The notes below the pieces were generated by a model. The model was not told the origin of the DNA. It saw only the letters and a list, made by a program, of their open reading frames with translations, and ran no database searches. The position numbers were made by a program, and so were the translations under genes. DNA of 64,000 nt, taken from an uncultured Candidatus Rokubacteria bacterium (GTDB lineage Bacteria; Methylomirabilota; Methylomirabilia; Rokubacteriales; DASRDR01). Position 1 is the first letter of the stretch. Each line of letters begins with the position of its first letter. The stretch spans positions 32,001 to 96,000 of the forward strand of contig CAWGVS010000010.1 of the NCBI GenBank assembly GCA_963826115.1. The letters are read 5' to 3'. Of the stretch, positions 23,128 through 43,609 are shown one piece after another.

Positions 23128-23171
23128 CGCCTGCACAGTCCACTGTGCAGGGTGCACTGTGGACTGTGCAC
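23128..23171. promoter_or_regulatory. Double-dyad element copy 1 (candidate enhancer/UAS)
   Basis: TGCACAGT-CC-ACTGTGCA (23132-23149) and TGCACTGT-GG-ACTGTGCA (23153-23170), 21 bp apart; 40/44 identical to the reverse complement of 28381-28424. Confidence 0.75.
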
Positions 23172-23329
23172 TCGTCGTAGCCCGTTGAATCTTAAGGCGC
23201 TCTGGCCCCCCCGTTCCCCCTAGCCCCGCGCCCTGCCCAGTGGGGAGTGCACCGGCCCCCCCGATCCCTGAGCCGTGGTGTGCCCTCCAACTCCGCGTCG
23301 TCATGGGCGCGCGCCCTTCGTCGCCGGAC

Positions 23330-23345
23330 CGGCACGGGCCGTGCA
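23330..23345 (+). promoter_or_regulatory. sigma-54 promoter candidate for the 23438-27865 unit
   Basis: CGGCACGGGCCGTGCA (GG-N10-GC), about 160 bp downstream of dyad element 1. Confidence 0.55.
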
Positions 23346-23437
23346 CCCCGGGGCTCCCGCGGGACCGGATCCAGGCGTCGTCGCGGCGCCGGGATCGCCT
23401 GCTGTCGGAGGCCACGCACGCGGCGAGGAGGCCGAGC

Positions 23438-24346
23438 ATGGGCTGGCTCGACGATCTGAGGAAGTGGCTGGGCAGCGGGGAGCGGCCGGCGCCGAACGGA
23501 TCGCCCGCGCCGCCACCCGCATTCACGGTCGGCCCACGCCCCTTCGGGGTGGGCCGGGACGTCGCCGGCGTCGAGTGGCAGACCGACAAGCGCACGAGCG
23601 CGCTGGTGCGCTATCGCGCCGCGGGCGCGGAGCCGTGGAGCGAGGTGGTCGACGAGAGCCGCCAGCGCGACCACCAGCGCACGCTGTCGCCGCTGACGCC
23701 GGACACGGAGTACCAGGTCGAGGTGACCGCGACCGTGCCACAGCGCGGCGGCGGCATGGTGTCGCGGACGATCACGCTCCGGACCCTGCCCGTGGCCGCG
23801 CCTCCCCCCCCGCCACCCGACCACGTCCCGCCGTCTCCGCCGCCCGACGACGGCGGCGAGCCCATCCCGCATCCGCCCATGACCGTGAGCGTGCTCGCGG
23901 AGCAGGCGGTGTGGCTCCCGGGCACGCTCACCCGGGTCGATCCGGCCTTCGCGTCGTGGCTCCGGCGCACCTGTGTCGGCGGCGCGACTCGGCTCGTGCT
24001 CGCCGATCTCGGCCAGATCCCCGGCCGGATGCGCCAGGCCGGCTTCCGGGGTCGGGACAACGCGCTCTGGTACACCCTGTCGCGCTCCTACGCGGAGTGG
24101 AACTGGCACGGGGACCCGCACGACCCCGACCGCCACCTGAGCGACCAGCGGCGGGAGCTCCACGACTTCTGGTCGAACTACATCGACGCCGTGCTCGCGG
24201 CCATGACGGCCGCGCCCCAGACGACCGCGCTCATCCTCGACAACGATGGCCCCGACCGCTGCGGCAAGGAGCTGGGGGAGTACACACAGCGCCAGATGCG
24301 CAACGCGGCCGGGCGCGTCGAGCTGGGCCGCTTCCACCACGACTGA
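23438..24346 (+). CDS. Hypothetical protein: FN3-like domain, poly-Pro linker, unknown C-terminal domain
   Basis: GAGGAGG RBS; VEWQTD..ALVRY..H..TLSPLTPDTEYQVEV is FN3-like; PPPPPPDHVPPSPPP linker. Confidence 0.7.
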   Translation: MGWLDDLRKWLGSGERPAPNGSPAPPPAFTVGPRPFGVGRDVAGVEWQTDKRTSALVRYRAAGAEPWSEVVDESRQRDHQRTLSPLTPDTEYQVEVTATVPQRGGGMVSRTITLRTLPVAAPPPPPPDHVPPSPPPDDGGEPIPHPPMTVSVLAEQAVWLPGTLTRVDPAFASWLRRTCVGGATRLVLADLGQIPGRMRQAGFRGRDNALWYTLSRSYAEWNWHGDPHDPDRHLSDQRRELHDFWSNYIDAVLAAMTAAPQTTALILDNDGPDRCGKELGEYTQRQMRNAAGRVELGRFHHD

Positions 24347-24386
24347 CCGCGCGGCCGCGGGCGCGGCCGCCACGGAGGGCGATCGG

Positions 24387-24629
24387 ATGGTGCGCGCCTA
24401 TCTCCTCGTCGAAGCCGATCCGGCCGGGGCCACGAACCTCCTGGCGCGCGTGCGGAGCGTGAGCCTGGGCAACTGCCTCCTGCTCGCCGAGGAGCTGATG
24501 CCCGGCGAGATCATCGCGCATCTGCACTGCACCGAGCGGGCGGACGTCACCCGGGCCGTCGTCGAGGACATCGCCCGGCTCGACGGTGTCCGGCGCACCA
24601 CGCTCCTGCTCCTGACGGACCAGGGGTAG
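24387..24629 (+). CDS. Small alpha/beta protein resembling a stand-alone Lrp/AsnC ligand-binding (RAM) domain
   Basis: MVRAYLLVE...IARLDGVRRTT pattern; 80 aa. Confidence 0.6.
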   Translation: MVRAYLLVEADPAGATNLLARVRSVSLGNCLLLAEELMPGEIIAHLHCTERADVTRAVVEDIARLDGVRRTTLLLLTDQG

Positions 24630-24661
24630 CGTCTCCCGCGCGCCACCCGGGAAGGGCGACC

Positions 24662-26692
24662 ATGGCGAGCAAGCGCACGCACGCCGGGCGGCCGCAGCGG
24701 CTCGACCGGGATCTCATGGAGCAGCTCCTCTTCGGGACCGGCCGGGCGCGCCGGTTCACGCAGGACTCGCCGGTGCTGCCCGACGTGTGGCTCGAGTACG
24801 CGAAGCAGCCGGCCGAGGACGGTGGGCCCCCCGCGGGGACGGCCCGCGGCCGGAGCCCCGCCGCGCTCCTGCCGCCCGTGAAGCTCCTCCTGACACCCTA
24901 CCGCGAGGTGGCGGCGGGCGAGGTCCGCCGCACCGTCCGCGAGCGCCTGACCGCCGAGCGCCAGACCGCCGCGTGGCGCGCCTTCGGCCACGCGCCGTCG
25001 CCCTTGCCCCGGGTCGTCTACAACCTGTCCACGGTGGCCGCGACGCTCCACTTCGAGGACCTGGTGCGCGTCGTGCTGCCGATGACGGAATGGTGGCACC
25101 GTCTCACCCGGGAATGGAGCGTCGACGACATCCGGGACGAGACCTCGCAGCGCTGGCTCGCGCAGGCGATCCGCGACCCCGAGCACCCGCCGATCGCGCC
25201 GGGGCCGGCGAGCGTGAAGCGGCGGCTCCGGGTGCGCTCCGATCTCCTGTGGATGATCCGCGTGGTGGGGGCGCTCGCGATCGTGCGACGGGGCGGCCGG
25301 CTGCCCCGCGTCTTCACCGAGTCGAAGGAGGGTGTCGCGGCGGCGACGGAGGCCGACTGGCTCCAGCTGATCCGGGCCGTCGCCGACCTGGTGCGCGGGG
25401 TCGCGTCGGAGGCGCGCCCCATGGTCTACTCCGTCAGCATCAACCGCGAGGCGTCGCCCACCGTGGCGCGCTCGACCCTGGCCATCAAGGCCGACGCCGC
25501 TCGCCGCCTCTTCGCCATCTCGTGCCGGGAGATCACGTGGGCGGTCATCGACAGCGGAGTCGACGCCCGCCATCCGGCCTTCCGCGCGCGCGACCCGAAG
25601 AGCGAGGCGCCGGTGAGCGACCGGCCGTTCGTCGACGCGGCCGGGCGCGCCGGGAACTGCACCCGCGTGGTCGAGACCTACGACTTCACGGAGATCGACC
25701 TCCTCCTCGACCCCGACTCGCCCGACGTGCCCGCCGAGCTCCGGAAGCGGCTCGGCGACGGGTCGCCCGACGCCCGAAAGCTTCGCCAGCAGCTCGAGGA
25801 GCTGTACGGCGCCCTGAGCCGGGGCCGCGCGATCGACTGGGGCCAGGTCGCCCCCTTCATCCGCGTGCCGCACGCGGACGGCCAGTACCGCCGGCCGGAG
25901 AACGACCACGGCACGCACGTGGCCGGGATCCTGGCCGGCGACTGGCGGAAGGGGGAGGCGGGCGGGCTCCTCGAGGAGGACCTGATCGGCGTCTGCCCCG
26001 ACCTGCGCCTCTACGACTTCCGGGTCCTGGACGAAGCTGGCCGCGGGGACGAGTTCGCGGTCATGGCGGCGCTCCAGTTCGTGCGCTACCTGAATTCCAC
26101 GAACGAGTACGTCGTCGTGCACGGCGCCAACCTGAGCCTCTCGATCCCCCACGAGATCTCGAACTACGCGTGCGGCCGCACGCCGGTGTGCGACGAGTGC
26201 GACCGGGTGGTGTCGTCGGGGGTGGTGGTGGTCGCGGCGGCCGGCAACCAGGGCCGCCAGCGGTACACGACGGAACAGGGACGGGTCGCCGAGGCCTATC
26301 TCTCCATCAGCATCACCGACCCCGGCAACGCCGAGCAGGTCATCACCGTCGGCGCCACCCACCGGTACCGGCCGCACACGTACGGCGTCAGCTACTTCTC
26401 GAGCCGCGGCCCGACCGGCGACGGCCGGATCAAGCCGGACCTGGTGGCCCCCGGCGAGAAGATCACGGCGCCGGTGCCCGAGGGCGCCTTCGGCCTGAAG
26501 GACGGGACCAGCATGGCGGCGCCGCACGTGAGCGGCGCGGCCGCGCTCCTCATGGCCCGGCACAACGAGCTGGTCGGCCGGCCGGGCCGCCTGAAGCAGA
26601 TCCTCTGCGAGACGGCGACCGACCTCGGCCGCGAGCGCTACTTCCAGGGGGCCGGGATGCTCGACGTCCTCCGCGCGCTCCAGTCGGTCTGA
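24662..26692 (+). CDS. S8 (subtilisin-like) serine peptidase with long N-terminal region, no signal peptide
   Basis: Triad motifs AVIDSGV, HGTHVAGIL, GTSMAAPHVSG; AAAGNQG; KPDLVAPG. Confidence 0.93.
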   Translation: MASKRTHAGRPQRLDRDLMEQLLFGTGRARRFTQDSPVLPDVWLEYAKQPAEDGGPPAGTARGRSPAALLPPVKLLLTPYREVAAGEVRRTVRERLTAERQTAAWRAFGHAPSPLPRVVYNLSTVAATLHFEDLVRVVLPMTEWWHRLTREWSVDDIRDETSQRWLAQAIRDPEHPPIAPGPASVKRRLRVRSDLLWMIRVVGALAIVRRGGRLPRVFTESKEGVAAATEADWLQLIRAVADLVRGVASEARPMVYSVSINREASPTVARSTLAIKADAARRLFAISCREITWAVIDSGVDARHPAFRARDPKSEAPVSDRPFVDAAGRAGNCTRVVETYDFTEIDLLLDPDSPDVPAELRKRLGDGSPDARKLRQQLEELYGALSRGRAIDWGQVAPFIRVPHADGQYRRPENDHGTHVAGILAGDWRKGEAGGLLEEDLIGVCPDLRLYDFRVLDEAGRGDEFAVMAALQFVRYLNSTNEYVVVHGANLSLSIPHEISNYACGRTPVCDECDRVVSSGVVVVAAAGNQGRQRYTTEQGRVAEAYLSISITDPGNAEQVITVGATHRYRPHTYGVSYFSSRGPTGDGRIKPDLVAPGEKITAPVPEGAFGLKDGTSMAAPHVSGAAALLMARHNELVGRPGRLKQILCETATDLGRERYFQGAGMLDVLRALQSV

Positions 26693-26713
26693 CGCGGGTC
26701 AGGGAAGGCCGCG

Positions 26714-27865
26714 ATGCTGGTGCTCGAGGCACTGCGCGCGCGGTTCGGCGACGCGCTCCTCCTGCACTCCGGCACCACGGCGAAGCCACAGCTCACCGTC
26801 ATCGACGGCGGACCGCCCGGCGTCTACAACGATGCGCTCCGGCCGAGGCTCGAGGCGCTCCGGGCCGAACGCGGCCTCGACGACCGGACGCCCCTCGACA
26901 TCGAGCTCATGATGGTGAGCCACATCGACGACGACCACATCTCGGGCCTCCTCGAGCTGGCGCAGAAGCTCAACGAGCGTCGGGAGAGCGGCCAGCCGCT
27001 CCCGTGGCGGATCCGCCGCGTCTGGCACAATTCGTTCGACGACATCCTCGACAACGACGACCTCAAGGTCGGCGGCGGGGCGTCCACCATGAGCCCCGCG
27101 TCGCTCGACGATTTCCTGGCGCCCGAGGGCTCGCTGATCCTGGCCAGCGTCCCGCAGGGACGGCAGCTCCGGAAGCTGCTCGGCGCCCTGACTCTCGGCG
27201 GCAACCCCCCCTTCAAGGGTCTGGTCTCGGCGGATGGCCTCGCGAAAGCCGTGACGGTGGGCGACCTCAGGATCACGGTGGTGGCGCCCCGGAAGGCCGA
27301 GCTGGCGGCGCTCCAGAAGAAGTGGAACAAGGAGATCGCGCCGCTCCTCGAGAAGGAGCGGAGCCGGCCGCGGCTCGCGGAGATCGCCGCCTACGTGGAC
27401 ACGTCGGTGCACAACCTGTCCAGCATCGTCGTCCTCGTCGAGTCGCAGGGGAAGCGCATCCTCCTGACCGGCGACGGGCGCGGCGACCACACGCTCGCGG
27501 GGCTCAGGAGCGCGAAGCTCCTCGAGGACGGCAAGCTCCGTCTCGATGTGCTGAAGCTGCCGCACCACGGTAGCGAGCGCAACGTCGCCCCCGACTACTT
27601 CGAGACGGTCGTCGCGAAGCACTACGTCGTCTCGGCGGACGGAAAGTTCGACAATCCCGACGTCGGGACGCTCCAGATGATCTCCGCGGCGCGCCGGGAC
27701 GACGACTTCACCATCCACCTCACGTATCCGACAGGCGAGTTCGACGTCCCCCGGATCGGCGAGAAGGTCGAGACGTTCTTCGCGGGCGAGCGGCGAGCCG
27801 GCCGCGCCTACCGCGTGGTGGCGCGGCCGCCGGGCGAGCTGTCGGTGCGCGTTGCGGTCGCGTAG
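26714..27865 (+). CDS. Metallo-beta-lactamase-fold hydrolase (ComEC-like)
   Basis: GDALLL, IDGGP, SHIDDDHISG, NLSSIV, LLTGDG, KLPHHGS. Confidence 0.88.
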   Translation: MLVLEALRARFGDALLLHSGTTAKPQLTVIDGGPPGVYNDALRPRLEALRAERGLDDRTPLDIELMMVSHIDDDHISGLLELAQKLNERRESGQPLPWRIRRVWHNSFDDILDNDDLKVGGGASTMSPASLDDFLAPEGSLILASVPQGRQLRKLLGALTLGGNPPFKGLVSADGLAKAVTVGDLRITVVAPRKAELAALQKKWNKEIAPLLEKERSRPRLAEIAAYVDTSVHNLSSIVVLVESQGKRILLTGDGRGDHTLAGLRSAKLLEDGKLRLDVLKLPHHGSERNVAPDYFETVVAKHYVVSADGKFDNPDVGTLQMISAARRDDDFTIHLTYPTGEFDVPRIGEKVETFFAGERRAGRAYRVVARPPGELSVRVAVA

Positions 27866-27893
27866 CCGCCGGCGGGCGGTCGTGCGCGGGCGG

Positions 27894-28298
27894 TCAGGAC
27901 CGAGAGCGACGCGGACCCGACCGGGCGGGGCGCGGCGCGCCCGGCGGCACGACCATGAAGCCGAGCACGCGCATGAGCGCCTCGGTGGGATCGGACGCCG
28001 CGCGACGTCGGTCGCTGTGCCGCCGGTCGTCGTCGACCCGGCGCGGCAACCGGCGCCGCTCACCGACGCGCCGGTCCACGATCACGCGCCCGCGCCCGGC
28101 GGACTCCTGGCGCTCCCGGAGGAAGTCGGCGAGGTCGGTGAGGGCCCGGCTGACGATCACGAGATCGCTGGCGGCGGGGCCCAGCCGGGGACGGCGGCGT
28201 GGCGCGCGCGCGCGGGTCACGCCCGCGCGCTTCGCCGTCCGACGCAGGGACCCCGAGCGATGAGTCGGCGAAGCGTGCCGGCGGCGCGCGCGTTTCAT
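27894..28298 (-). CDS. Basic hypothetical protein
   Basis: ATG 28298; LVIVSR..VIVDRRVGERRR..DRRRAA..LGFMVV. Confidence 0.55.
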   Translation of the reverse strand: MKRARRRHASPTHRSGSLRRTAKRAGVTRARAPRRRPRLGPAASDLVIVSRALTDLADFLRERQESAGRGRVIVDRRVGERRRLPRRVDDDRRHSDRRRAASDPTEALMRVLGFMVVPPGAPRPARSGPRRSRS

Positions 28299-28380
28299 CC
28301 TTCGAGGATGCCAAAGGAGTCGCCGACGGCCAAAGCTTATCGGCTCTCGCCGCCGTCGACCCGAGGACGCCCGCGCGCGG

Positions 28381-28424
28381 GTGCACAGTCCACAGGGCAC
28401 CCTGCACAGTCCACAGTGCAGGCG
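28381..28424. promoter_or_regulatory. Double-dyad element copy 2 (candidate enhancer/UAS)
   Basis: TGCACAGT-CC-ACAGGGCA (28382-28399) and TGCACAGT-CC-ACAGTGCA (28403-28420); inverted relative to copy 1. Confidence 0.75.
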
Positions 28425-28568
28425 TGGTAAGCGCCCGCCACATATAGCGTCTCCCGCCGTCTCCGCGCGGCCGTGAGCGGGACCTGCCACCCAGGCAGTG
28501 CAGGTGCCGCTCCGGCGGGCCCCCGGCTAACTCCGCGTACCGTCAAGCGTCCCGAGCCCCGAGGGCCG

Positions 28569-28584
28569 TGGCACTCGGGTTGCT
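28569..28584 (+). promoter_or_regulatory. sigma-54 promoter candidate for the patatin/heme-enzyme unit
   Basis: TGGCACTCGGGTTGCT matches consensus TGGCAC-N5-TTGCW; about 150 bp after dyad element 2 and about 50 bp before the patatin GTG. Confidence 0.75.
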
Positions 28585-28635
28585 CCGCCGATCCACGCGG
28601 TCGCGTCGTTCCGAGACCGTTCCGGAGGAGGCGCT

Positions 28636-29751
28636 GTGCCGTTCGGCGTCGAGGGAGTCGAGTCCGGCGTGGGCCTCGCGCTGTCGGGGGGAGGGTTCCG
28701 CGCGACCCTGTTCCACTGCGGCGCGCTCTGGCGTCTCGACGAGCTCGGCTTCCTCCCGAAGCTCGACCGCGTCTCGAGCGTGTCCGGCGGCTCGATCACG
28801 GCGGGCGTCCTGGCGACGCGCTGGACGGAGCTGCGCTTCGCCGGCGCCACGGGCGCGAACCTCCGGGAGACGGTCATCGCGCCGCTGCGGGCGTTCTGCC
28901 ACCGCACCGTGGACGTCCCGGCCATCGGGATCGGGACCCTCCTGCCGGGCCGGCGTCCGGCCGACCTGCTCCAGGCCGCGTACGCGGAGCACCTCTTCGG
29001 GGCGGCCGCGCTCCACGACCTGCCCGACCGCCCGCGCTTCGTGTTCAACGCGACGAACCTCGCGACGGGGGTGAGCTTCCGGTTCTCGAAGCCGTACGCC
29101 GGCGACTACCGGATCGGCCTCATCCCGAAGCCGACGTTCCCGGTCGCGCTCGCGGTGACCGCGTCGAGCGCCTTCCCGCCGTTCCTCTCGCCGGTCGTCG
29201 TCCGGCCGGACCCCGACGCGTTCCAGCGAGTTCCGGGCGCCGACCTCTTCGACCAGGTCGCGTACCGCGAGCGGCTGCTCCTGACCGACGGCGGCGTCTA
29301 CGACAACCTCGGGCTCGAGACCGTGTGGAACCGCTACGACACGGTGCTGACGAGCGACGCCGGCGCGCCGTTCGGCCTGGCGCTCGACCCCGAGACGTCG
29401 TGGCACGGTCAGGTGCTCCGCGCGCTCGACATCGCGACCAACCAGGCGCGCGCGCTTCGCAAGCGGATCCTGATCGACGACTACACGCGGGGCGTGCGGA
29501 AGGGCGCGTACTGGGGCATCGCCACCGACATCCGGGCGTACGGGCTCGCCGACGCGCTGCCGGTGTTGCCGGCGCGCATCGCGGAGCTCGCTGCCCTGCG
29601 CACCCGGCTCGACGACTTCTCCGACGTGGAACAGGGCCGGCTCATCAACTGGGGATACGCCGTGTGCGACGCCGCCATGCGCCGGCACGTCACCGCCGGC
29701 GCCGGCCCCGCCCCGGCATGGCCCGTGCCCGAGCTTCGGCTGGACCAGTAG
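28636..29751 (+). CDS. Patatin-like phospholipase
   Basis: LALSGGGFRA, VSSVSGGS, ASSAFP, DGGVYDNLG; GGAGGAGG RBS. Confidence 0.92.
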   Translation: MPFGVEGVESGVGLALSGGGFRATLFHCGALWRLDELGFLPKLDRVSSVSGGSITAGVLATRWTELRFAGATGANLRETVIAPLRAFCHRTVDVPAIGIGTLLPGRRPADLLQAAYAEHLFGAAALHDLPDRPRFVFNATNLATGVSFRFSKPYAGDYRIGLIPKPTFPVALAVTASSAFPPFLSPVVVRPDPDAFQRVPGADLFDQVAYRERLLLTDGGVYDNLGLETVWNRYDTVLTSDAGAPFGLALDPETSWHGQVLRALDIATNQARALRKRILIDDYTRGVRKGAYWGIATDIRAYGLADALPVLPARIAELAALRTRLDDFSDVEQGRLINWGYAVCDAAMRRHVTAGAGPAPAWPVPELRLDQ

Positions 29752-29898
29752 GCAGCCGCAGGAACCGGAGGACCGTCTGATGAAGCGCTCCGCGTCCCGC
29801 CCGTCTTCCCGCGCGCCTCGATCGCCCGCGCCCCCGGCTCCCGCCGCCGGTCCCGGCCGGCTCCGCCGGATGTGCAGCATCCGCGAGGGCTCGCCGCG

Positions 29899-31269
29899 GT
29901 GAGCGGGGCGCGGGCCCTCGTACTCGGCGTGCTCCTGTGCGCCGTCCTCCTCGGGGCGGCGCCCGGGCGGGCGCAGGACGCCGATGCGGACAAGCGGGCG
30001 GCCCTCAAGCGCATCGCGGGCTTCGCCGCGCTCATCGACAAGACGGACGTCGAGATCCGGCGGAAGCAGTGGGAGTACCGGCTCCTCCTGTCGTTCGCGC
30101 TCGCCGTCGGCATCCTCGGCGCGGCGAGCGCGGCGGCCCAGAAGTTCGAGGGCACGAAGGCGCGGGTCGCCACGCTCGCCATGGGCGTGCTGATCTCCGC
30201 CCTGACCTTCTCGACGAACACGCTCTTCCCGGACGACCACCGGGCGCTCAAGCGCAACGTCGAGCGGGCGCGCCACGAGCGCGACGTGGGCAAGGTGGTG
30301 GCCGACTCCGCGGACCTGTCGGTCAGCACCGAGGCGCTCCTCCAGCTCGAGCAGCAGGTGCAGGCGCGGTACGCGGCGATCGTCTCCGCGCTGGGGCCGG
30401 ACTCGAAGCAGGCGTCGCTCGCGCCGGCGAGCGCGTGGGCGGCGGCGCCGGGAGCCCCGGAATCCCCGGAGTGCCAGCGCTGGCCGTCGAGCGGCGGCCT
30501 GTGCTTCTCCGGGATCGGCCGCAGCGCGTACCCCGAGCAGGCGCGGCAGAACGCGCTCCAGATCGCGGTCGACCAGGCCTCCCAGTACGTCGCGCGGCAG
30601 GTCGGGAGCCAGCGCCCGCCGGAGGCGTTCCGGGACTACGTCGAGCGGTTCGCGCGCGTGGAGGAGGTGTACCCGAGCCGGGACCTCCGCGCCGGCCGGG
30701 AGTTCGGGTACGTCGCCATCCTCACGCTGAACTCGCGCTTCGCCGACCCGAAGGCCGTGGCCGCCTCGAGCATCGAGCCCCGGACGATCACCTCCGGCGA
30801 CCCCGTGCTCATCCGCGGCTGGCGCGCTCCGCCGGGCGGCCGCCTGCCGGGCGACCCCGCCGGCGAGGCCTGGTTCCGGATCGAGGGACAGGATGTGCGC
30901 GCCGACCGCGGCGCGGACGGGGCGAGCTCGTGGGTGTTCGGGAAGCGTGGCGGCGCGCGGGGCCCTCTCCAGCACGGCGACCTCGTCTCGCTGCGCGGCG
31001 TGTGGGGCGATCCCTACGTCACCGTCGAGCCCGACGGGCGGCTCCTCGCGTACCGCGGTCCCTCGGAGGCCGCGCTCTTCCGCCTCGAGCGGCGCGGCGG
31101 TGGGGAGCTGGTCCGCGAGGGCGACGCCTTTGCGCTCGTGGATCCCCGGAGCGGGCGCGTCCTCCGGGCGGACCGCGGACGCCTGGTGATGAGGCCTCCG
31201 GAGGATGCCGCGTCCACGCGCTTCGCGGCCGTGCTCGTGCCGCGCATCGGCACGGCTGCGAAGTACTGA
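29899..31269 (+). CDS. Exported/membrane multidomain hypothetical protein
   Basis: Signal-like N-terminus, two internal TM helices, a GIGRS..ARQNAL segment, and a beta-rich C-terminus (GDLVSLR..YVTVE..LFRLER) resembling fascin/beta-trefoil repeats. Confidence 0.6.
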   Translation: MSGARALVLGVLLCAVLLGAAPGRAQDADADKRAALKRIAGFAALIDKTDVEIRRKQWEYRLLLSFALAVGILGAASAAAQKFEGTKARVATLAMGVLISALTFSTNTLFPDDHRALKRNVERARHERDVGKVVADSADLSVSTEALLQLEQQVQARYAAIVSALGPDSKQASLAPASAWAAAPGAPESPECQRWPSSGGLCFSGIGRSAYPEQARQNALQIAVDQASQYVARQVGSQRPPEAFRDYVERFARVEEVYPSRDLRAGREFGYVAILTLNSRFADPKAVAASSIEPRTITSGDPVLIRGWRAPPGGRLPGDPAGEAWFRIEGQDVRADRGADGASSWVFGKRGGARGPLQHGDLVSLRGVWGDPYVTVEPDGRLLAYRGPSEAALFRLERRGGGELVREGDAFALVDPRSGRVLRADRGRLVMRPPEDAASTRFAAVLVPRIGTAAKY

Positions 31270-31305
31270 ACCCGCGCTGCCCAGGCCCGAGGGAGGGAGA
31301 ACGCG

Positions 31306-36209: not shown

Positions 36210-36641
36210 ATGGGATATGACGTGCCCCAGCTCTTGACGATGTCCCAGAAGGAGCTCGATGACCTGTTCACGCGAAGCGCGCCGGGCGACATCCCCGACG
36301 GCGAGGCCGAGGGGACCGCGATCGTGGCCCCGGGGACGACCTACAGCGGCGACATCGCCAAGATCCTCAACCACTTCGCCTGGCAGGGGAAGACCTTCGA
36401 CGCGGCGAAGGGGCAGCTGAAGAACCGGATCCTGCCGTTCGGGCTCAACGCCATCATCGCGCGGATCTACAAGGAGCCGAGCTGGCTCGACGGCAAGGAG
36501 TGCATCGTCCTCGACTACTCGGACACCTCGCTGGTGGCGCAGTGGATCCGCGACGAGATCCGCCAGATCGGGCCCGGGCTCTACCTGGGCAAGGTCTACT
36601 GGAACAAGAAGCGCCTCATCGATTTCGCGCTCAAGTTCTGA
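36210..36641 (+). CDS. Conserved hypothetical protein
   Basis: 143 aa; MSQKELDDLF, WQGKTF, LDYS, IRDEIRQI.PGLYLG; GAGGAGG RBS. Confidence 0.8.
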   Translation: MGYDVPQLLTMSQKELDDLFTRSAPGDIPDGEAEGTAIVAPGTTYSGDIAKILNHFAWQGKTFDAAKGQLKNRILPFGLNAIIARIYKEPSWLDGKECIVLDYSDTSLVAQWIRDEIRQIGPGLYLGKVYWNKKRLIDFALKF

Positions 36642-36648
36642 GGGTCCC

Positions 36649-37950
36649 GTGACCCCGCAATCGAGCTTCGCGGTGGTGGCGCCGGTCGAGACGGGCCGGG
36701 TGGAGGCCCTGCGGACCCTCCTCGCCACCATGAACCACCGGCCGGGGGTGGTGGACCCGGAGAACGCGCTCGTGCCGTTCGGCCGGTTCGAGCAGATCCA
36801 CTTCGCCCGCTTCGTCGTCCTCGACGACCCGACCGCCGACGACATCGCGGCCCACGGCGTCACGCCGCCTCGCTTTCCCGTGGCACTCGCCTTCGTCGGG
36901 GATTGCGACGGGCCCGCCGAGGAGTGTCTCGCCGACCTCGCGGCGCGGGCTGGGCCGGGCCTCCGGCGCATCTTCGCGCACTGCCGCGGGCTGCCGGCGG
37001 ACGGAGACCTCGGCGCCTGGCTCAGGGCGCATGACGTCCCGGCGGCGACGCACTACGTGAACTGGGTGGGGCGCACGGTGGGGCAGGCTCGCGAGGAGAG
37101 CGCCCTCCGCCGGGCGCTCGAGGCGTACCTGGACGCGAACGCCCGCGCGCTCGCGTCGCGTGCGCCCGCCCAGGTCTTCGACGACCTGCGGGCCTTCGTC
37201 GCGCGGGAGCGCCAGGCCGGCCGCCTGAGCCTGACGCCCCCGGCACCGACCCCGGGCGCCTGGCGCCTCCGGAAACTCGTCCACCTGGTCGGCGTGCCCC
37301 TCGTCCTGCTGCTCGCCGCCCCGCTCCTCCTCGTGTACCTCCCGATCTTCGCGATCGTCCTCCGGCGCCGCGAGCGGTCCGACCCGGAGATCGCGCCGCG
37401 CCCGGATCCCGAGCACGTCAAGCGCCTCGCCGACCTCGAGGACCACGACATCACCAACCAGTTCAGCGCCATGGGCACGCTGAAGCCGGGCCTGTTCCGC
37501 CGGACGACGCTGGTCTTCGTGCTCTGGATCGTCGCCTACACGACGCGGCACATCTACACGCACGGGTTCCTCGCGCGGGTCGGGACGATCCACTTCGCGC
37601 GGTGGACCTTCCTGGACGGCAAGCGCCGGCTCCTGTTCGCCAGCAACTACGACGGGAGCCTGGAGAGCTACATGGACGACTTCATCAACAAGGTGGCCTT
37701 CGGGCTGAACGTCGTGTTCACGAACGGCGTGGGCTACCCGCGCACGCGCTGGCTCGCGCTCGACGGCGCCAAGGACGAGCAGAAGTTCAAGTACTTCATC
37801 CGCCGGCACGAGCTGGCCACCGAGGTCTGGTACAACGCGAACCCCGGTCTCACGGCCGTCGAGCTCGAGCGGAACGGCCGCATCCGCGCGGGCCTCGAGC
37901 GGCCGACGATGACCGACGCCGAGGCGCGCGAGTGGCTGCGGCTCCTGTGA
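36649..37950 (+). CDS. DyP-associated hypothetical protein with a duplicated IHFAR domain and a central TM segment
   Basis: QIHFARFVVL..DCDG and TIHFARWTFL..SNYDGSLESYMDDF flank a hydrophobic helix. Confidence 0.75.
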   Translation: MTPQSSFAVVAPVETGRVEALRTLLATMNHRPGVVDPENALVPFGRFEQIHFARFVVLDDPTADDIAAHGVTPPRFPVALAFVGDCDGPAEECLADLAARAGPGLRRIFAHCRGLPADGDLGAWLRAHDVPAATHYVNWVGRTVGQAREESALRRALEAYLDANARALASRAPAQVFDDLRAFVARERQAGRLSLTPPAPTPGAWRLRKLVHLVGVPLVLLLAAPLLLVYLPIFAIVLRRRERSDPEIAPRPDPEHVKRLADLEDHDITNQFSAMGTLKPGLFRRTTLVFVLWIVAYTTRHIYTHGFLARVGTIHFARWTFLDGKRRLLFASNYDGSLESYMDDFINKVAFGLNVVFTNGVGYPRTRWLALDGAKDEQKFKYFIRRHELATEVWYNANPGLTAVELERNGRIRAGLERPTMTDAEAREWLRLL

Positions 37951-37963
37951 GGGAGGCCCGACG

Positions 37964-39454
37964 ATGACAGGGGACGCGGTCGACTACGGCGACGTCCAGG
38001 GGCTCGTGCGCTACGCCTACGCGCACATGACCGAGGCGCGCTTCCTCCTCGTCCGCGTGGCGGACCCCGCGGCCGCGCGCGCGTGGCTGCGCGCCGCGCC
38101 CGTCACGACGGCCGCCCGGTCGGCGCCGCGGCCGACCACGGCGCTCCAGGTGGCCTTCACGCGCGAGGGGCTCGAGGCGCTCGGCGTGCCCGCCGGCGTC
38201 CTCCAGGGGTTCTCCGCGGAGTTCCAGTCGGGGATGGCCGGAGAGGAGAGCCGGTCCCGCCGCCTCGGCGACGTCGGGGTCAGCAGCCCGGCCGAGTGGC
38301 AGTGGGGCGGGCCCGGGGCGGTGCCGCACGCCGTCGTGATGCTGTACGCCGAGCTCGGCCGGCTGGAGCCCTGGACGTCGTCGGTGACCCGCGACCCCTG
38401 GAACGCGGCATTCCGGGTGCTGCCCAGCCCGCCGCCGATCCCGCTCGATCGCCTGGAGCCGTTCGGCTTCGTCGACGGCATCAGCCAGCCCGTCCTCGAC
38501 TGGGCCCAGCGCCGCATCGTCGACGGGCGCGACCAGATCGAGTACGGGAACGTCCTGTCGCTCGGCGAGGTCCTGCTCGGCTACCCGAACGAGTACGGCA
38601 AGGTCACCGACCGCCCGCTGATCGACGGCGGGAACGCGCGGGGCGCCGGCCTCCCGGCCGCTACCGGCGCGCCCGGTCAGGCCGACCTGGGGCTGAACGG
38701 CAGCTATCTCGTCGTCCGCCAGCTCCGCCAGGACGTCGACGGCTTCTGGCAGTTCCTGCGCCGGCAGGGGAACGGCGACCCGCAGGCCGGTCAGGTGCTC
38801 GCGGAGGCCATGGTGGGCCGCGCGCTCACCGGCGAGCCGCTGCTCGCCGCCGGCGGGCCGCCCATCGCGGGCGTCGACGCCCGCACGCCCGACGAGGTCC
38901 GGTACAACCAGTTCACCTTCGACGCCGACGCGAACGGCACCCGGTGCCCGATCGGCGCCCACATCCGGCGGGCGAACCCGCGGAACGCCGACGTACCCGG
39001 CCGGCCGTCCGGGCTCCTCGGCCGGCTGGTCCGCACCCTCGGCTTCGGCCGGAAGAGCTTCCGCGAGGACGCGGTCGCCTCGGCCCGTTTCCACCGCCTC
39101 CTGCGGCGCGGGCGCGCGTACGGCCCCTGGCCGCCGGGAACAGCCGGCGACGGCGAGCGCGGCATCTACTTCATCGCGCTCAACGGGAACATCGCGCGCC
39201 AGTTCGAGTTCGTGCAGAGCGCCTGGATGATGGGCACCAAGTTCGACGGGCTCGGCGAGGAGAGCGACCCCCTCATCGGCGCGCGCGACCCCCTGCCGGG
39301 GTGCCCGGTCACGAGCGTGTTCTCGCTCCCCCAGGCCGGCGGGCTCCGGCGCCGCGTCACGGGCCTCCCGCGGTTCGTCACGGTCCGGGGCGGCGCGTAC
39401 TTCTTCCTGCCGGGGCTGCGCGCGCTCCGCTACCTCACGAGCTTCGGGAGCTGA
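37964..39454 (+). CDS. Dye-decolorizing (DyP-type) peroxidase
   Basis: DVQGLV, EPFGFVDGISQP (GxxDG), CPIGAHIRRANPR, LLRRGRAYG, RQFEFVQ. Confidence 0.9.
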   Translation: MTGDAVDYGDVQGLVRYAYAHMTEARFLLVRVADPAAARAWLRAAPVTTAARSAPRPTTALQVAFTREGLEALGVPAGVLQGFSAEFQSGMAGEESRSRRLGDVGVSSPAEWQWGGPGAVPHAVVMLYAELGRLEPWTSSVTRDPWNAAFRVLPSPPPIPLDRLEPFGFVDGISQPVLDWAQRRIVDGRDQIEYGNVLSLGEVLLGYPNEYGKVTDRPLIDGGNARGAGLPAATGAPGQADLGLNGSYLVVRQLRQDVDGFWQFLRRQGNGDPQAGQVLAEAMVGRALTGEPLLAAGGPPIAGVDARTPDEVRYNQFTFDADANGTRCPIGAHIRRANPRNADVPGRPSGLLGRLVRTLGFGRKSFREDAVASARFHRLLRRGRAYGPWPPGTAGDGERGIYFIALNGNIARQFEFVQSAWMMGTKFDGLGEESDPLIGARDPLPGCPVTSVFSLPQAGGLRRRVTGLPRFVTVRGGAYFFLPGLRALRYLTSFGS

Positions 39455-39518
39455 CCATCCGTACCGGCGATGGGGCCCTGGCACTCCGGACGGCGCGGCC
39501 GAGACGGGAGAGAGCCGG

Positions 39519-40754
39519 GTGCTGCTGAAGAGGTTCCACGACGCGGCCCTCGAGCTGATGAAGCTGGAGCGCCGCGTCGATCCGTTCTTCCGCCCGCCGC
39601 TCGACGCCATCTTCCAGGAGCCCGTGGCCTGGTTCCTCCAGGTCCTGATCAACCGCCGCCGCCCGGCCGAGGGGCTCGCGCTCGCCGAGGAGAGGCTTCT
39701 GCCCGGCGAGGACGCCTTTCTCGACTCGATCATCCGGGACATGGCCGCCTACATGCGCGCGCACTACGCGCCGGGCGGGTTCCAGCGCGCGGGGAACACG
39801 AAGACGCACGGCGTGCTCCGCGGCGAGTTCACCGTGCGTCCCGACGTGCCGGTCGAGTGGCGGCACGGCGTTCTCGCCGAGCCCCGGACCTTCCGGGCCT
39901 GGGTCCGGTTCGCCGGGCCCGGACCGGCGAGCCCACCAGACATCGAGGAGGTCGGCGTCCTCAGCATCGGCGTCAAGCTGATGGGCGTACCGGGCCCGAA
40001 GCTCCTCGACGACGAGCGCTTCACGCAGGACTTCACGGGCATCAGCGCCCCCACCTTCACGACGCCCGACGTGCGCGAGAACGCGAAGCTCCAGGCCGCG
40101 AGTCTTCGCGGAACGCCGCTCTTCTACTTCATCAACCCGTTCGACTCCCACCTGCTGGACGGGCTCATGCAGGGGCTGTGGGCGCGGACGCAGACCAGTC
40201 CGCTCGAGACCCCGTACTGGGGCTGCGTGCCCTTCCTCCTCGGCGAGGGGCGCGCCATGCAGTACTCCTTCCGCCCGCGGCTGACGACGCGGAGCCGGGT
40301 GCCGCGCCTGCCGCGGCGGCCGCCCGACCACTACCTCCGCGAGGCCATGGCGGCCACGCTCGCGCGGCAGGACGTCGAGTTCGACTTCCTGATCCAGATC
40401 CAGACCGACGCCCACCGCATGCCCATCGAGCACGCGTCGGTCCGCTGGCCGGAGCGGCTCTCGCGCCCGGTGCCGGTGGCGACGCTGCGGCTCCCGCGCC
40501 AGACGTTCGACTCCCCCGCTCAGCTCGCGTTCGCCCACAACCTCTCCTTCAATCCCTGGCACACGGTCGCCGCCCACCGGCCCCTCGGGAACCAGAACCG
40601 GGGCCGCCGGCGCCTCTACGTGGAGCTCTCGCGGCTCCGGCAGTCCATGAACGCCACGCCGCACGTGGAGCCGACCGGCGACGAGATGTTCGAGCATGCC
40701 GCGCGCGGGTCCGACGGGCCGCCCGACCGGACGCGTCCACGGAGTCGAGCGTGA
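39519..40754 (+). CDS. Catalase-fold heme protein with Asn in place of the distal His
   Basis: RAGNTKTHG where RxxHxKxHG is expected; WVRF, MPIEHASVRW, LSFNPWH, RPLGNQNRGRRRLY (proximal Tyr). Confidence 0.85.
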   Translation: MLLKRFHDAALELMKLERRVDPFFRPPLDAIFQEPVAWFLQVLINRRRPAEGLALAEERLLPGEDAFLDSIIRDMAAYMRAHYAPGGFQRAGNTKTHGVLRGEFTVRPDVPVEWRHGVLAEPRTFRAWVRFAGPGPASPPDIEEVGVLSIGVKLMGVPGPKLLDDERFTQDFTGISAPTFTTPDVRENAKLQAASLRGTPLFYFINPFDSHLLDGLMQGLWARTQTSPLETPYWGCVPFLLGEGRAMQYSFRPRLTTRSRVPRLPRRPPDHYLREAMAATLARQDVEFDFLIQIQTDAHRMPIEHASVRWPERLSRPVPVATLRLPRQTFDSPAQLAFAHNLSFNPWHTVAAHRPLGNQNRGRRRLYVELSRLRQSMNATPHVEPTGDEMFEHAARGSDGPPDRTRPRSRA

Positions 40755-43609
40755 CGCGGCGGGGGCCCGCGATCGGGCTTCTCCTCGGGGCTGCGCTCCT
40801 TGCGGGCGGGTGCGACGACGGGCCGGGTGACGTGGAAGCCTGTCTCCGCGCCGCGTGGGCCGGCATCCGCTCGATCGCCGAGGACCGCGCCCACCGGTTC
40901 CTCGGCAAGGTGGGGGAGGACCGCGCCCGGTGCCGCGGCGGCGCCCGGGCGGTTGCGCGGCGGCCCGGGCCGTGGGTGGACTGGCCGAACTACTGGGCCA
41001 CGGGCGACGCCGGCAGCCGAGCCGCGCGGTGGGGCGACCGCACGCGGTTCCTCCGCCCGGACGGGCGCGGTCTCGACGGCGCGCTCATCGACCTCGAGTA
41101 CCAGCGCGTCGAGCTCCTGCGCTTCAACCTCCTGGACAACAGCGGCACCTATCCCGACTACGCCCGCGGCCGCGACGGGGTCGCGGGACCCGCGCTTCGC
41201 GTCTGGCCCGCGATGCGGTTGCCGCCGGAGCACCCGAGCTACGCGGCGGTGGGCGGCGCCGGCGAGCAGCGCTGCGCCGGCGCGCTGATCCGGCATCGCG
41301 CGCTGACCGGGATCTGCAACGACCTCCGCAACCCGCTCATGGGATCGGCGGGCATGCCGTTCGCGCGGAACGTCGAGTTCGAGGCGACCTTCCCGGACCT
41401 CGGCCGGACCGAGCTCGCCCGGAACCGCCACGGCGGGCGCCTCGGTCTCCTCCGGCCCGACCCGCAGGTGGTGAGCCGCCGCCTTCTGAGCCGAGAGACG
41501 GCGTCGCCCGACACGTGCCACGAGGGCCGCGGCCTCCCTGGCCACGCGGCCGCGGCGCGGTGCCCCTACAAGGCCGCGCCCACGCTCAACGTCCTGGCGG
41601 CGTTCTGGATCCAGTTCATGACGCACGACTGGTTCTCCCACCTGACCGAGGGCCGGAACGCGACGGCGACGATCTCCACGGGCTGCGCGGTCGCCCGTGC
41701 CGGCGGCGTGGAGCGCCCGCTGACGGCCACCGACGTGGCCGGGCTCGGGTGCCGCCCCGCGGACCGGGCCGGGGCGGCGGCGGTCGACCAGGCCGCCGAC
41801 CCGCCGGTCTTCGAGCATCGTGGACAGACGCGCGTGGCCCGCGCCTACCGGACCACGCGCAACACCGTCACCGCGTGGTGGGACGCCTCCCAGCTCTACG
41901 GCCACGACGAGACGTCGCGGCGGCGCGTGAAGCGCGACCCCGAGGATCCGGCGAAGCTCCGCCTCCTGGTGCTGGGCGGCCGCGTGGCCGCGGGCGACCG
42001 GCTCGGCTACCTGCCGGTCTTCGAGACCGGGGATCCGATCAACCCGCTCTGGGCGGGGCAGGAGGCGACCGCGTTCCCCGACAACTGGAGCATCGGCCTC
42101 TCCTTCTTCCACAACGTGTTCGCGCGCGAGCACAACCTCGTGGTCGACGCGTTCCGGGCGGCGGGGCGCGCCACGCCCGACGCCGACTCGGGCCTCCGGG
42201 ATCCGGCGAAGCCCGCGCGGGTTCTCCGCTACCGCGACCTGTCGGACGACGAGCTGTTCGAGGTGGCGCGCCTCGTGATCGCGGCGGAGATCGCGAAGAT
42301 CCACACCGTCGAGTGGACGCCGCAGCTCCTCTACGACGAGCCCCTGCGCCTCGCGATGTCGGCGAACTGGTCGGGCCTCCTGGCCGACGACGCCCGCGCC
42401 CGGGCGGCGCTCGCCGGCGTCCTCCGCGCGCTCGCCGGGTCCCGGGACGCCGACCGCGCCGCCGCGTGGTACTCGGTCTTCGCCTCGGGCCCCGGGATCG
42501 TCGGGCTCGGCAGCCGCGTCTACGCCGACGGTCCGGTCGGCACGGTGGACGTCTGGAGCCTCGCGAACTCCGAGCACGTGAACGGCGGGACCCACCACTT
42601 CGGCTCGCCGTTCAACTTCCCCGAGGAATTCGTCACCGTCTACCGCCTGCACCCGATGCTCCCGGACCTCCTCGAGCTCCGGACGCTCGCGCCGGACCCG
42701 AACGTCGTCCGCCTCCGGATCCCGCTCCGCGACACGGTCCGCGTCGGGGCGACGCCCGCGATGCGGGAGCTCGGCCTCGCGACCTGGGCCCTGTCCCTGG
42801 GCCGCCAGCGCCTGGGCCGGCTCGCGCTTCGGAACCACCCGCGATTCCTGCAGGCCCTCGACCTGCCGGGCGCCAGCGGGAGCGGGAAGCTCGACGTCGT
42901 CGCCCTCGACCTCATCCGGGATCGCGAGCGCGGCGTGCCCCGCTTCAACGAGTTCCGCCGCCAGTACGGCCTCCGGCAGCTGACCAGCTTCGAGGACTTC
43001 GTGGACCGCACGCTTCCCCCGGGCGCGCCCGACCGCGTCGAGCAAGAGCGGCTGGTCGGGGTCCTGCGCGAAGTGTACGGACAGCACCGGTGCGACGCGG
43101 GGAAGCCGATCACCACCGCCCAGGTGAACGCGGACGGCACGCCCATCGACGACTGCCTGGGGCATCCCGACGGCAGCCCGGTCGACAACGTGGAGGATCT
43201 CGACACCGTGGTCGGCTGGCTCGCGGAGCCCACGCGGCCCCACGGGTTCGCGATCTCCGAGACGCAGTTCCAGGTGTTCGTCCTGAACGCCTCGCGGCGT
43301 CTCTTCAGCGACCGCTTCTTCACCTCGAGCTTCCGGCCCGAGTTCTACGGCCACCTCGGCCTCCGCTGGGTCGCCGACAACGGTCCCGACGGGCCGATGC
43401 AGGAGCGCGCCGCGCCGGGGGCGCCCGCGGCCCGAGCGGTGGATGTCTCTCCGCTGAAGCGGGTGCTCCTGCGGACGATCCCGGAGCTCGCGCCCGAGCT
43501 CGCCCACGTGGTCAACGTCTTCGACCCGTGGGCGCGCGCCAGAGCGGACTACTACTCCGTGGCCTGGCGGCCCCGGCCCGACGCCGAGGCCGACGAGGCC
43601 TTCCGCTAG
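40751..43609 (+). CDS. Peroxidase-cyclooxygenase superfamily lipoprotein, fatty-acid alpha-dioxygenase-like
   Basis: Lipobox LLAGGC; FWIQFMTHDW, WWDASQLYG, IAKIHTVEWT, EEFVTVYRLH, DRERGVPRFNEFRR, ASRRLFSDRFFT. Confidence 0.88.
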   Translation: MTRRGPAIGLLLGAALLAGGCDDGPGDVEACLRAAWAGIRSIAEDRAHRFLGKVGEDRARCRGGARAVARRPGPWVDWPNYWATGDAGSRAARWGDRTRFLRPDGRGLDGALIDLEYQRVELLRFNLLDNSGTYPDYARGRDGVAGPALRVWPAMRLPPEHPSYAAVGGAGEQRCAGALIRHRALTGICNDLRNPLMGSAGMPFARNVEFEATFPDLGRTELARNRHGGRLGLLRPDPQVVSRRLLSRETASPDTCHEGRGLPGHAAAARCPYKAAPTLNVLAAFWIQFMTHDWFSHLTEGRNATATISTGCAVARAGGVERPLTATDVAGLGCRPADRAGAAAVDQAADPPVFEHRGQTRVARAYRTTRNTVTAWWDASQLYGHDETSRRRVKRDPEDPAKLRLLVLGGRVAAGDRLGYLPVFETGDPINPLWAGQEATAFPDNWSIGLSFFHNVFAREHNLVVDAFRAAGRATPDADSGLRDPAKPARVLRYRDLSDDELFEVARLVIAAEIAKIHTVEWTPQLLYDEPLRLAMSANWSGLLADDARARAALAGVLRALAGSRDADRAAAWYSVFASGPGIVGLGSRVYADGPVGTVDVWSLANSEHVNGGTHHFGSPFNFPEEFVTVYRLHPMLPDLLELRTLAPDPNVVRLRIPLRDTVRVGATPAMRELGLATWALSLGRQRLGRLALRNHPRFLQALDLPGASGSGKLDVVALDLIRDRERGVPRFNEFRRQYGLRQLTSFEDFVDRTLPPGAPDRVEQERLVGVLREVYGQHRCDAGKPITTAQVNADGTPIDDCLGHPDGSPVDNVEDLDTVVGWLAEPTRPHGFAISETQFQVFVLNASRRLFSDRFFTSSFRPEFYGHLGLRWVADNGPDGPMQERAAPGAPAARAVDVSPLKRVLLRTIPELAPELAHVVNVFDPWARARADYYSVAWRPRPDAEADEAFR

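Follow-up and report, generated by a model that had tools for sequence, protein, structure and literature searches.

A 64,000-nucleotide stretch of DNA from an uncultured Candidatus Rokubacteria bacterium (assembly GCA_963826115.1, contig CAWGVS010000010.1, positions 32,001 to 96,000), hereafter the window and numbered from its own first letter, carries two successive runs of genes on the same strand, each headed by a control region of the same design. The DNA is 73% G+C and genes were called from the G+C content of their codon positions, because plain lists of open reading frames (ORFs) were swamped by antisense frames. The first run encodes a fibronectin-III (fn3)-like protein (23438-24346), an 80-residue protein (24387-24629), an S8 subtilase (24662-26692) and a hydrolase of the metallo-beta-lactamase (MBL) fold (26714-27865). 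The second begins with a patatin-like phospholipase (28636-29751) and continues through twelve further genes with gaps of at most 121 bp. Both runs had been recognised in an earlier reading of the sequence (the original prediction), which placed the end of the second at 43609 or beyond; it in fact ends at 49153, and the ORF at 39470-43609 separates by codon-position G+C into two overlapping genes (39519-40754 and 40751-43609). The enzyme families named in that prediction, namely protease, MBL, phospholipase, di-haem protein, GMC oxidase, DyP, catalase-fold protein and alpha-dioxygenase-like enzyme, are each confirmed by family or profile matches, and Rfam and tRNA scans across the window were empty. 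The locus is best seen as a conserved effector module of patatin, S8 and MBL whose two halves each carry a copy of one clade-specific sigma-54 enhancer, and to which a lineage-specific row of haem oxidases is joined.

The two control regions occupy intergenic DNA at 23132-23345 (P1, before the fn3-like gene) and 28382-28584 (P2, before the patatin gene), and each contains three 18-bp dyads, a short common box and a GG-N10-GC element. In P1 the first two dyads (23132-23149 and 23153-23170) start 21 bp apart and a third, weaker one (23234-23251) lies 81 bp after the second. The box follows at 23287-23294 on the plus strand, 44 bp before the GG of a sigma-54-type -24/-12 element, CGGCACGGGCCGTGCA (23330-23345, plus strand; GG at 23331-23332 and GC at 23343-23344), which has two mismatches to the 16-nucleotide consensus. 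In P2 the first two dyads (28382-28399 and 28403-28420) again start 21 bp apart, the weaker third (28485-28502) lies 82 bp after the second, and the box (28527-28534, plus strand) stands 43 bp before the GG. Here the sigma-54 promoter element is TGGCAC-N5-TTGCT (28569-28584, plus strand), of which 28569-28583 is an exact TGGCAC-N5-TTGC with its GC at 28582-28583. The sigma-54 consensus is close to TGGCACG-N4-TTGCW. The boxes, CCAACTCC and CTAACTCC in P1 and P2 respectively, both follow C[CT]AACTCC, the -24 GG and -12 GC are 10 nucleotides apart in both regions, and alignment of the two upstream regions places the start of the third dyad 102 bp (P1) and 103 bp (P2) after that of the first. Transcription would be predicted to start near 23356 and 28595.

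The dyads are far above chance. The 12-mer core TGCACAGTCCAC, allowing one mismatch, occurs four times in the 64 kb, at 23132, 23159 (minus strand), 28382 and 28403, against 0.11 expected, and none of 100 shuffles reached four. Similarly, TGCAC-N8-GTGCA with up to one mismatch has six matches in the window against 1.13 expected (six was reached in 0/100 shuffles), and all of them fall within 23132-23251 and 28382-28420. Compared as inverted copies, the two 47-nucleotide dyad blocks show 89% complementarity; compared as direct copies, they show 75% identity. A common upstream layout, in the form of a double dyad with a GG-N10-GC motif 150-160 bp beyond it, had been claimed for both runs and is borne out, with the GG lying 161 bp (P1) and 150 bp (P2) past the double dyad; the third dyad and the shared box go beyond that claim.

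How well these features are conserved was judged from relatives of the patatin gene. One search of genome contigs with the patatin protein, with 10-kb flanks, gave at least 595 pattern matches and at least 448 relatives, the best 80 of which were analysed as loci; the fetched loci total 1.34 Mb. The nearest named relatives of the gene are in Methylomirabilota/Rokubacteria metagenome-assembled genomes, at 84% identity, and the four closest loci (L001-L004) belong to this group. Three of them, L002-L004 (83-86% identity), carry DNA upstream of patatin, which L001 does not. The patatin promoter region is kept in all three, with both strong dyads, a third dyad (stronger than that of the window in L002 and L004) and TGGCAY-N5-TTGCT. 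The region ahead of the first unit is kept in two of the three, L003 and L004, both of which retain the paired dyads and GGCACG-N3-CGTGCA; its third dyad matches TGCAC-N8-GTGCA perfectly, in the equivalent position, in L003 and with one mismatch in L004. Across the four genomes 68 of 81 motif columns of P2 are invariant, compared with 60 of 260 other columns, and the corresponding values for P1 in three genomes are 61 of 81 and 102 of 305. All seven promoter regions from the four genomes have three dyads, 83-199 bp from the GG, with a spacing of 21-22 bp between dyads 1 and 2 and of 81-82 bp between dyads 2 and 3, and with the box 42-44 bp before the GG.

A consensus of TGCACWGT, with no preference at the centre, emerges from the 42 half-sites of these regions. 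The search pattern had itself fixed or restricted positions 1-3; positions 4-8 are A in 34, C in 39, A/T in 37, G in 35 and T in 37 of the 42, and position 9 is free. To our knowledge the half-site within its 18-bp dyad corresponds to no site that can be named. Throughout the 1.34 Mb of fetched loci there are ten exact TGCAC-N8-GTGCA sites, and nine are within the L002-L004 promoter regions; the tenth (L033:7941), which has neither a partner dyad nor a -24/-12 element within 780 bp downstream, was taken as chance. Since nine of the ten are linked to these promoters, with the motifs kept and their spacing fixed, the dyads have the pattern of a functional protein-binding site and not of a dispersed repeat, which the original prediction had named as the outcome that would count against it. 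Its central proposal, that one enhancer-type site is common to two units and lies upstream of sigma-54-type promoters, agrees with the shared motifs and with their conservation in relatives. Because the motifs stay invariant while their flanks diverge, co-regulation of P1 and P2 by one enhancer-binding protein is well supported.

What, then, would such a switch control? The S8 protein (676 residues) has its catalytic domain at residues 292-665, with a Peptidase_S8 match at 1.9e-40 and the triad motifs present as DSG at 297, HGTH at 416 and GTSM at 615. Its N-terminal 290 residues match no family, yet recur in 781 proteins that have generic names only. The MBL gene starts 21 bp after the end of the S8 gene and encodes a predicted latent nuclease of the Avs1a/LmuA/RTasMBL type, with matches to NCBIfam Avs1a (5.6e-41) and to the PADLOC models LmuA (2.9e-48), Avs1a (1.6e-30) and RTasMBL (8.5e-29); a single-sequence search of the PDB found no match for it. 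Its HxDxDH motif at residue 70 (H70, D72, D74 and H75) and HHGS at 284 are intact, and these residues are invariant or nearly so in the family alignment. The patatin-like protein (371 residues; family match 4.1e-21) likewise retains its catalytic motifs, GGGxR at 18, SxSxG at 48 and DGG at 218, and is matched by no PADLOC model. The other two proteins of the first run are found only in close relatives: the fn3-like protein, of 302 residues, has a weakly fibronectin-III-like N-terminal part, and the 80-residue protein, which has no family match, is encoded on the opposite strand in L002.

The S8, MBL and patatin genes keep company well outside the Rokubacteria. A search with hidden Markov models of the six-frame ORFs of the 80 loci shows that 52 of them, spread over about ten phyla, have an MBL of the Avs1a type no more than 6 kb from patatin. 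The third gene encodes an S8 protease in 14 of these 52 loci, two of which also have a HExxH protein. In 16 it encodes a HExxH protein of about 600 residues, marked by a conserved HExxH...HExxxD signature; in nine, from Roseateles and its kin, it encodes a CHAT protease; and in 13 it is unassigned. Profile comparison with hhalign detected no likeness among the S8 N-terminal domain, the HExxH protein and the CHAT protein. With the window proteins as tblastn queries, S8 and MBL were found beside patatin in Acidobacteriota, Actinomycetota, Zixiibacteriota, Thermodesulfobacteriota and others, in shuffled gene order. On a more distant Rokuibacteriota contig (L030:414-4310) MBL and patatin are 86 bp apart, no dyads are present and a second, longer patatin-domain protein follows. 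S8, MBL and patatin thus appear to form one conserved module inherited together across phyla, and the boundary drawn in the original prediction between a protease/MBL unit and a lipase operon cuts through this three-gene module, because MBL and a swappable protease accompany patatin in 52 of the 80 loci.

Trees of the MBLs and of the patatins add to this picture. On the MBL tree the protease class needs three changes in 40 labelled rows, against a minimum of 11 when labels are shuffled, and the window MBL falls in an all-S8 clade of 13 rows with 99% support. For patatin, with 43 labelled rows, seven changes are required and shuffling never gave fewer than 14. Both are quick trees, in which kinship inflates such clustering. 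Even so, the difference between three and seven changes suggests joint evolution of protease and MBL, and a patatin that has come together with several different pairs of the two.

A class of systems with this logic is already known from two recent papers, referred to here for parts of their text. Protease-associated MBLs fall into trypsin-like, caspase-like and S8 subtilisin-like clades and are described as latent death effectors freed by site-specific proteolysis (2025 preprint, PMC12642450). In Hachiman and AVAST the MBL is a gated pro-nuclease cut by its paired protease, and such pairs have repeatedly been acquired by defence systems (PMC12799240, Science). The window shares with these modules (HamMAB, Avs1a/Avs1b, Lamassu and DRT variants, and the S8 'clade 3' of PMC12642450) an Avs1a/LmuA/RTasMBL-type MBL beside a protease, and an MBL phylogeny that tracks the class of protease. 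The claim that no named system has this composition is therefore true of the whole composition only, since the module itself has a named relative class in the protease-MBL pro-nuclease modules (PMC12642450, PMC12799240), of which it would appear to be a variant. In the characterised modules, as those portions describe them, the protease is trypsin-like and forms one chain with a core or sensor component such as HamA, LmuA or a STAND protein, whereas the S8 protease of the window has an N-terminal domain without family match and no recognisable sensor. A patatin phospholipase as the constant third gene also sets the present module apart. The word patatin has no mention in the main text, exclusive of figures and supplements, of PMC12642450, PMC12799240 and a trypsin-MBL paper, and a literature search gave no paper joining patatin to protease-MBL modules; Fig. 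1B of PMC12642450 is said to give 'additional sensor associations' for the S8 clade, so that an earlier mention is possible. Neither the patatin partnership nor sigma-54 control of protease-MBL modules was found in the literature searched. The patatin effectors of CBASS (CapV) are also patatin-fold phospholipases in conflict-type gene sets, but the window has no cyclase or nucleotide-sensing gene, and its patatin lacks a PADLOC match. AVAST type 1 membership was rejected, as the Avs1a match of the MBL is below the cut-off and there is no STAND protein.

Between the two halves of the module in the window lies a spacer that is unusual in its length. The gap from MBL to patatin, measured between ORF bounds, is 13-222 bp in S8-MBL-patatin loci of other phyla, compared with 770 bp in the window and about 960 bp in L002-L004. 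The spacer of the window and of L002-L004 contains the P2 enhancer and promoter together with a conserved, arginine-rich ORF of 134 codons (27894-28298, minus strand) that diverges from patatin and has the core GRGRVILDRR...DRRxSDRR...EALMRVLGF. Its 63 homologues are all labelled hypothetical, and the one with an organism name is from Methylomirabilota. Immediately ahead of the ATG of this ORF is a conserved TTGGCC-N17-CATCCT, whose position suggests a leaderless transcript. From the spacer lengths we infer an ancestral single operon, later broken in two in this clade when an insertion brought in the P1 control region or copied it.

Downstream of patatin the second run turns into an array of haem and flavin oxidases. 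The segment at 29872-31755 (all genes of the array being on the plus strand) encodes two proteins without family match, of 465 residues with a signal peptide and of 149 residues, and its content varies among relatives. There follow a di-haem protein of lipoprotein type (31752-34256, 834 residues), with CxxCH at 250 and 489 and a weak match to di-haem cytochrome c peroxidase; a GMC family FAD oxidoreductase (34272-36167), identified by family match; proteins of 143 and 433 residues (36210-37950) that match no family and are kept with the array in L002-L004; and a DyP-type peroxidase-like protein (37964-39454), again with a family match. Next come a haem protein related to catalase, of the small-catalase or allene-oxide-synthase (AOS)-like family (39519-40754), and an alpha-dioxygenase-like member of the animal haem peroxidase family (40751-43609; 952 residues with a lipoprotein-type signal), the two genes being adjacent with an overlap of four nucleotides. 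The family profile of the former matches 3e4w at 7.8e-16, catalases near 1e-7 and coral AOS at 3e-7; single-sequence PDB searches gave no match for it or for the di-haem protein, so that only the profile reveals its kinship. The best solved relatives of the latter are the alpha-dioxygenases of rice and Arabidopsis (4kvj, 3.7e-57). The array ends, on the same strand, with a 203-residue membrane protein, a 1334-residue multi-pass TPR protein and a 261-residue secreted protein (43621-49153). The TPR protein was considered as a hidden STAND sensor and rejected, as it has no P-loop or Walker A motif. Seven proteins of the unit had no hit in a Pfam search taken to an E value of 5, in which the 465-residue (0.33) and 261-residue (0.056) proteins had only hits below significance. 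Two observations concern the surroundings of these genes elsewhere. An astacin/matrixin-like metalloprotease gene that is not present in the window lies right after patatin in all four close relatives (L001:1281-2327, L002:11317-12288, L003:11224-12270 and L004:11242-12285). Homologues of the catalase-related protein (P0125, P0128, P0136, P0174, P0176 and P0187) are fused at the C- or N-terminus of proteins of 880-1223 residues, suggesting that elsewhere it is joined to its DyP-like or dioxygenase neighbours.

The pairing of a catalase-related with a dioxygenase-like enzyme has a parallel in what is cited here from a review (PMC13049297): the 10S-dioxygenase of Nostoc has as its partner a catalase-related hydroperoxide lyase encoded by a gene of its own, and plant and cyanobacterial alpha-dioxygenases yield 2-hydroperoxides. 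In the window the two genes are adjacent and overlapping. The window dioxygenase differs from those enzymes in its lipoprotein-type signal and long extra regions, and in sitting behind patatin with DyP, GMC, di-haem and several family-less proteins. A role of the array in lipid oxidation may reasonably be proposed. In each of the four close relatives patatin is followed by the array, and the di-haem, GMC, 143-residue and 433-residue genes are near patatin in none of the other 76 loci (tblastn); the DyP, catalase-related and dioxygenase genes would lie beyond the 10-kb flank at the spacing of the window, and so their absence was not really tested. The array is a clade-specific addition downstream of the module, and possibly co-transcribed. 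Of the co-occurrence that the original prediction looked for across genomes, the association of S8 and MBL with patatin is found across phyla and that of the oxidase genes is limited to the four closest relatives. The proposal that all eight families make up one conserved programme does not survive this comparison.

If the S8-MBL-patatin module is under a sigma-54 switch, which protein would throw it? The absence of an intact activator from the window had been predicted correctly, and only a wreck without an AAA+ core is present. This is an NtrC/NtrX-type gene (19430-20264, plus strand) in which receiver fragments in two frames, with the receiver N-terminus, are followed out of frame by the AAA-lid and HTH_8 end, the ATPase core being missing. 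L003 and L004 have no activator upstream of the SIS gene and do not conserve the wreck, which in the window stands beside other sigma-54-like motifs facing genes for universal stress proteins (Usp); for these reasons it is probably not the cognate activator. The window holds nine sigma-54-like motifs, compared with 3.4 expected by chance, a level at which any single motif is not negligible as a chance event. Seven of the nine are intergenic, although intergenic DNA is only about 12% of the window, from which the organism appears to use sigma-54-type promoters widely. Beyond P1 and P2 such motifs are found, mostly between genes, at 15626-15641, 17184-17199 and 19335-19350 (minus), 54820-54835 (plus), 56845-56860 (minus) and 57863-57878 (plus), where they adjoin universal-stress-protein, multicopper-oxidase, lipid-kinase and lytic-transglycosylase-like genes; none has TGCACWGT dyads. 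The end of the window (60778-63998) holds a gas-vesicle cluster with GvpK, GvpL/F twice, a GvpA-like gene and GvpG. Elsewhere, in patatin-MBL loci of Roseateles/Mitsuaria with a divergent CHAT protease, a GAF-AAA+-HTH_8 sigma-54 activator lies about 7 kb away (L010:18405-20822, minus strand, and at the same place in L008 and L011-L015); in those loci the DNA ahead of the module gave no match to the sigma-54 consensus. In the literature, one paper mentions both Methylomirabilis and rpoN, only in passing as judged by occurrence counts, and the search found no paper linking Rokubacteria with sigma-54.

Taken together, we consider it moderately likely that the locus is governed by one activator acting at two sigma-54 promoters, and that these serve an S8-MBL-patatin module with a protease-released nuclease. 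An activator of the NtrC family, encoded elsewhere in the genome, would bind the three dyads, which lie about 185-199, 164-178 and 83-97 bp ahead of the -24 GG. The three dimers so bound might make up a single AAA+ hexamer, for which the three-site enhancer of NorR offers a precedent (PMC2831303, in the part cited). With NorR at norVW and the tandem sites of NtrC type the window shares dyads 80-200 bp upstream of -24/-12 and three sites per promoter, but its third site is 81-82 bp from the second and not adjacent, and the enhancer is duplicated at promoters 5.2 kb apart. On the activator's signal P1 and P2 would fire together, P1 giving the fn3-like protein, the 80-residue protein, S8 and MBL, and P2 giving patatin. 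By analogy with trypsin-MBL modules S8 would then cleave MBL and release the nuclease, with patatin as a second latent effector or as a core component that captured the protease-nuclease pair. Sigma-54 promoters have no basal activity without their activator and its signal. Such a switch could keep self-harming enzymes silent, at near-zero basal expression, until they are needed. The set of protease, latent nuclease and phospholipase resembles a defence kit that works by cell suicide, and a role in defence or suicide would fit it. Transcription from P2 probably continues into the 19-kb array of extracytoplasmic and cytoplasmic oxidases, a read-through that is plausible from the gene spacing and the lack of a further sigma-54-like motif, and the array could oxidise fatty acids released by the lipase.

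A number of observations weigh against parts of this account. On the regulatory side, no Sigma54_activat domain was detected in the window (tblastn with a Roseateles activator as query, best E value 0.77) or in L001-L004, nor was rpoN found in either, and only the motifs and the decayed activator gene point to the use of sigma-54 by this organism. The -12 part of P1 has GTGCA in place of TTGCA and its element is a short palindrome, GCACG-N3-CGTGC, so that it may mark the binding site of a protein and no promoter. In L002 the P1 region is missing, and the fn3-like gene comes directly after two other genes. Moreover, a sigma-54 consensus precedes the module in just three of the 80 loci, all close relatives, and in none of the 76 more distant ones, which makes the regulation a peculiarity of the clade and not a property of the module. 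With respect to the module, the 80 loci are the best-matching relatives and no census, and 28 of them have no nearby MBL (three of these have a protease at the contig end and, of the other 25, eight have less than 2.1 kb of flank on one side). The MBL scores 140.6 bits against a curated Avs1a cut-off of 420, no sensor of the STAND, Hachiman, Lamassu, DRT or similar kind was found in the module with Pfam, NCBIfam or PADLOC, and Walker A is absent from all proteins of both units. Finally, read-through from P2 is called into question by the segment between patatin and the di-haem gene, whose gene content differs among five related genomes, as if two separate blocks met there.

These points give the alternatives their footing. 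The dyads might be operators of an ordinary repressor or activator at a sigma-70-type promoter, with GG-N10-GC incidental. The lack of an enhancer-binding protein and of rpoN in the window and L001-L004, the imperfect, palindromic P1 element and the 3.4 sigma-54-like strings that 73% G+C DNA provides by chance would all be accommodated, yet the P2 element is an exact consensus kept in three relatives despite diverging flanks, and the P1 and P2 elements stand at the same offset from a conserved box. The sites are also 85-200 bp upstream, which is usual for enhancers and far for operators, and their TGCAC...GTGCA ends presumably resemble NtrC-type sites. A scan of 22900-32000 returned no sigma-70-like promoter and no terminator, weak evidence either way from a crude scan built for other organisms. 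We regard the operator explanation as improbable. Only slightly less doubtful is the idea, in the spirit of the original prediction, that all the enzymes form one inducible metabolic programme making lipid-derived signals or toxins, with S8 and MBL as accessory processing enzymes. It has in its favour that the shared enhancer is real, that from P2 to 49153 the genes run on one strand with small gaps, no internal sigma-54-like motif and, within 22900-32000, no terminator-like site, that patatin with alpha-dioxygenase-like and catalase-related enzymes makes chemical sense, with the Nostoc pair as a precedent (PMC13049297), and that the array follows patatin in each close relative. What tells against it is that beyond L001-L004 patatin is accompanied not by the oxidase genes but by MBL and a swappable protease, that the patatin-di-haem junction is variable, and that the MBL belongs to a nuclease-type defence family and not to a family of lipid enzymes.

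Even granting the module, its purpose may be other than anti-phage: it might serve development or the programmed lysis of cells, act in conflict among kin, or help to scavenge nutrients when the cell is starved or stressed. We consider a role of this kind rather unlikely, while giving it more credence than the other two alternatives. Sigma-54 promoters, which require an activating signal, fit such a role better than they fit constitutive immunity, and the literature search turned up nothing in which sigma-54, enhancer-binding proteins and anti-phage functions meet. The locus is set among stress genes (Usp, cytochrome bd and gas vesicles), and no phage-sensing domain was found in the proteins of the units. 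Set against this, the nearest characterised MBL-protease relatives act in phage defence, according to the portions cited of PMC12799240 and PMC12642450, and both the swapping of protease classes and the shuffled gene order are typical of conflict systems. A caspase-like protease is also next door in L002, where a caspase-domain (Peptidase_C14) gene and a HExxH gene of the family that serves as third partner elsewhere (L002:2-3783) lie directly upstream of the fn3-like gene, in place of the P1 region.

The preferred reading, of a sigma-54-controlled protease-nuclease-phospholipase module, can be carried one step further into a suicide or alarm programme, in which one activator turns on a protease that sets free both the nuclease and the phospholipase. 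In this clade the same transcript would also supply the haem and flavin oxidases, which would turn the released fatty acids into hydroperoxides and aldehydes, and patatin would be a core, so far overlooked, that took up protease-nuclease pairs time and again, from at least three protease classes. As a whole this is a speculative and improbable extension. If it were true, bacterial cell death or the warning of kin would have an arm that works by enzymatic lipid peroxidation, with a logic like that of the plant wound pathway with its patatin, alpha-dioxygenase and oxylipins. Should the preferred reading itself hold, the module would stand as a widespread, unnamed three-gene family of patatin, swappable protease and MBL pro-nuclease in soil phyla that are underrepresented in defence surveys, and the theme of protease-activated effectors would come to include S8 and HExxH proteases as well as a lipase partner. 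Self-harming genes would be placed under an all-or-none sigma-54 switch, whose clean three-site motif could be used to find the activator and its regulon. Finally, with a phospholipase physically linked to a set of fatty-acid dioxygenase and catalase-related enzymes, a bacterial oxylipin or lipid-peroxidation response would become testable in uncultured bacteria.

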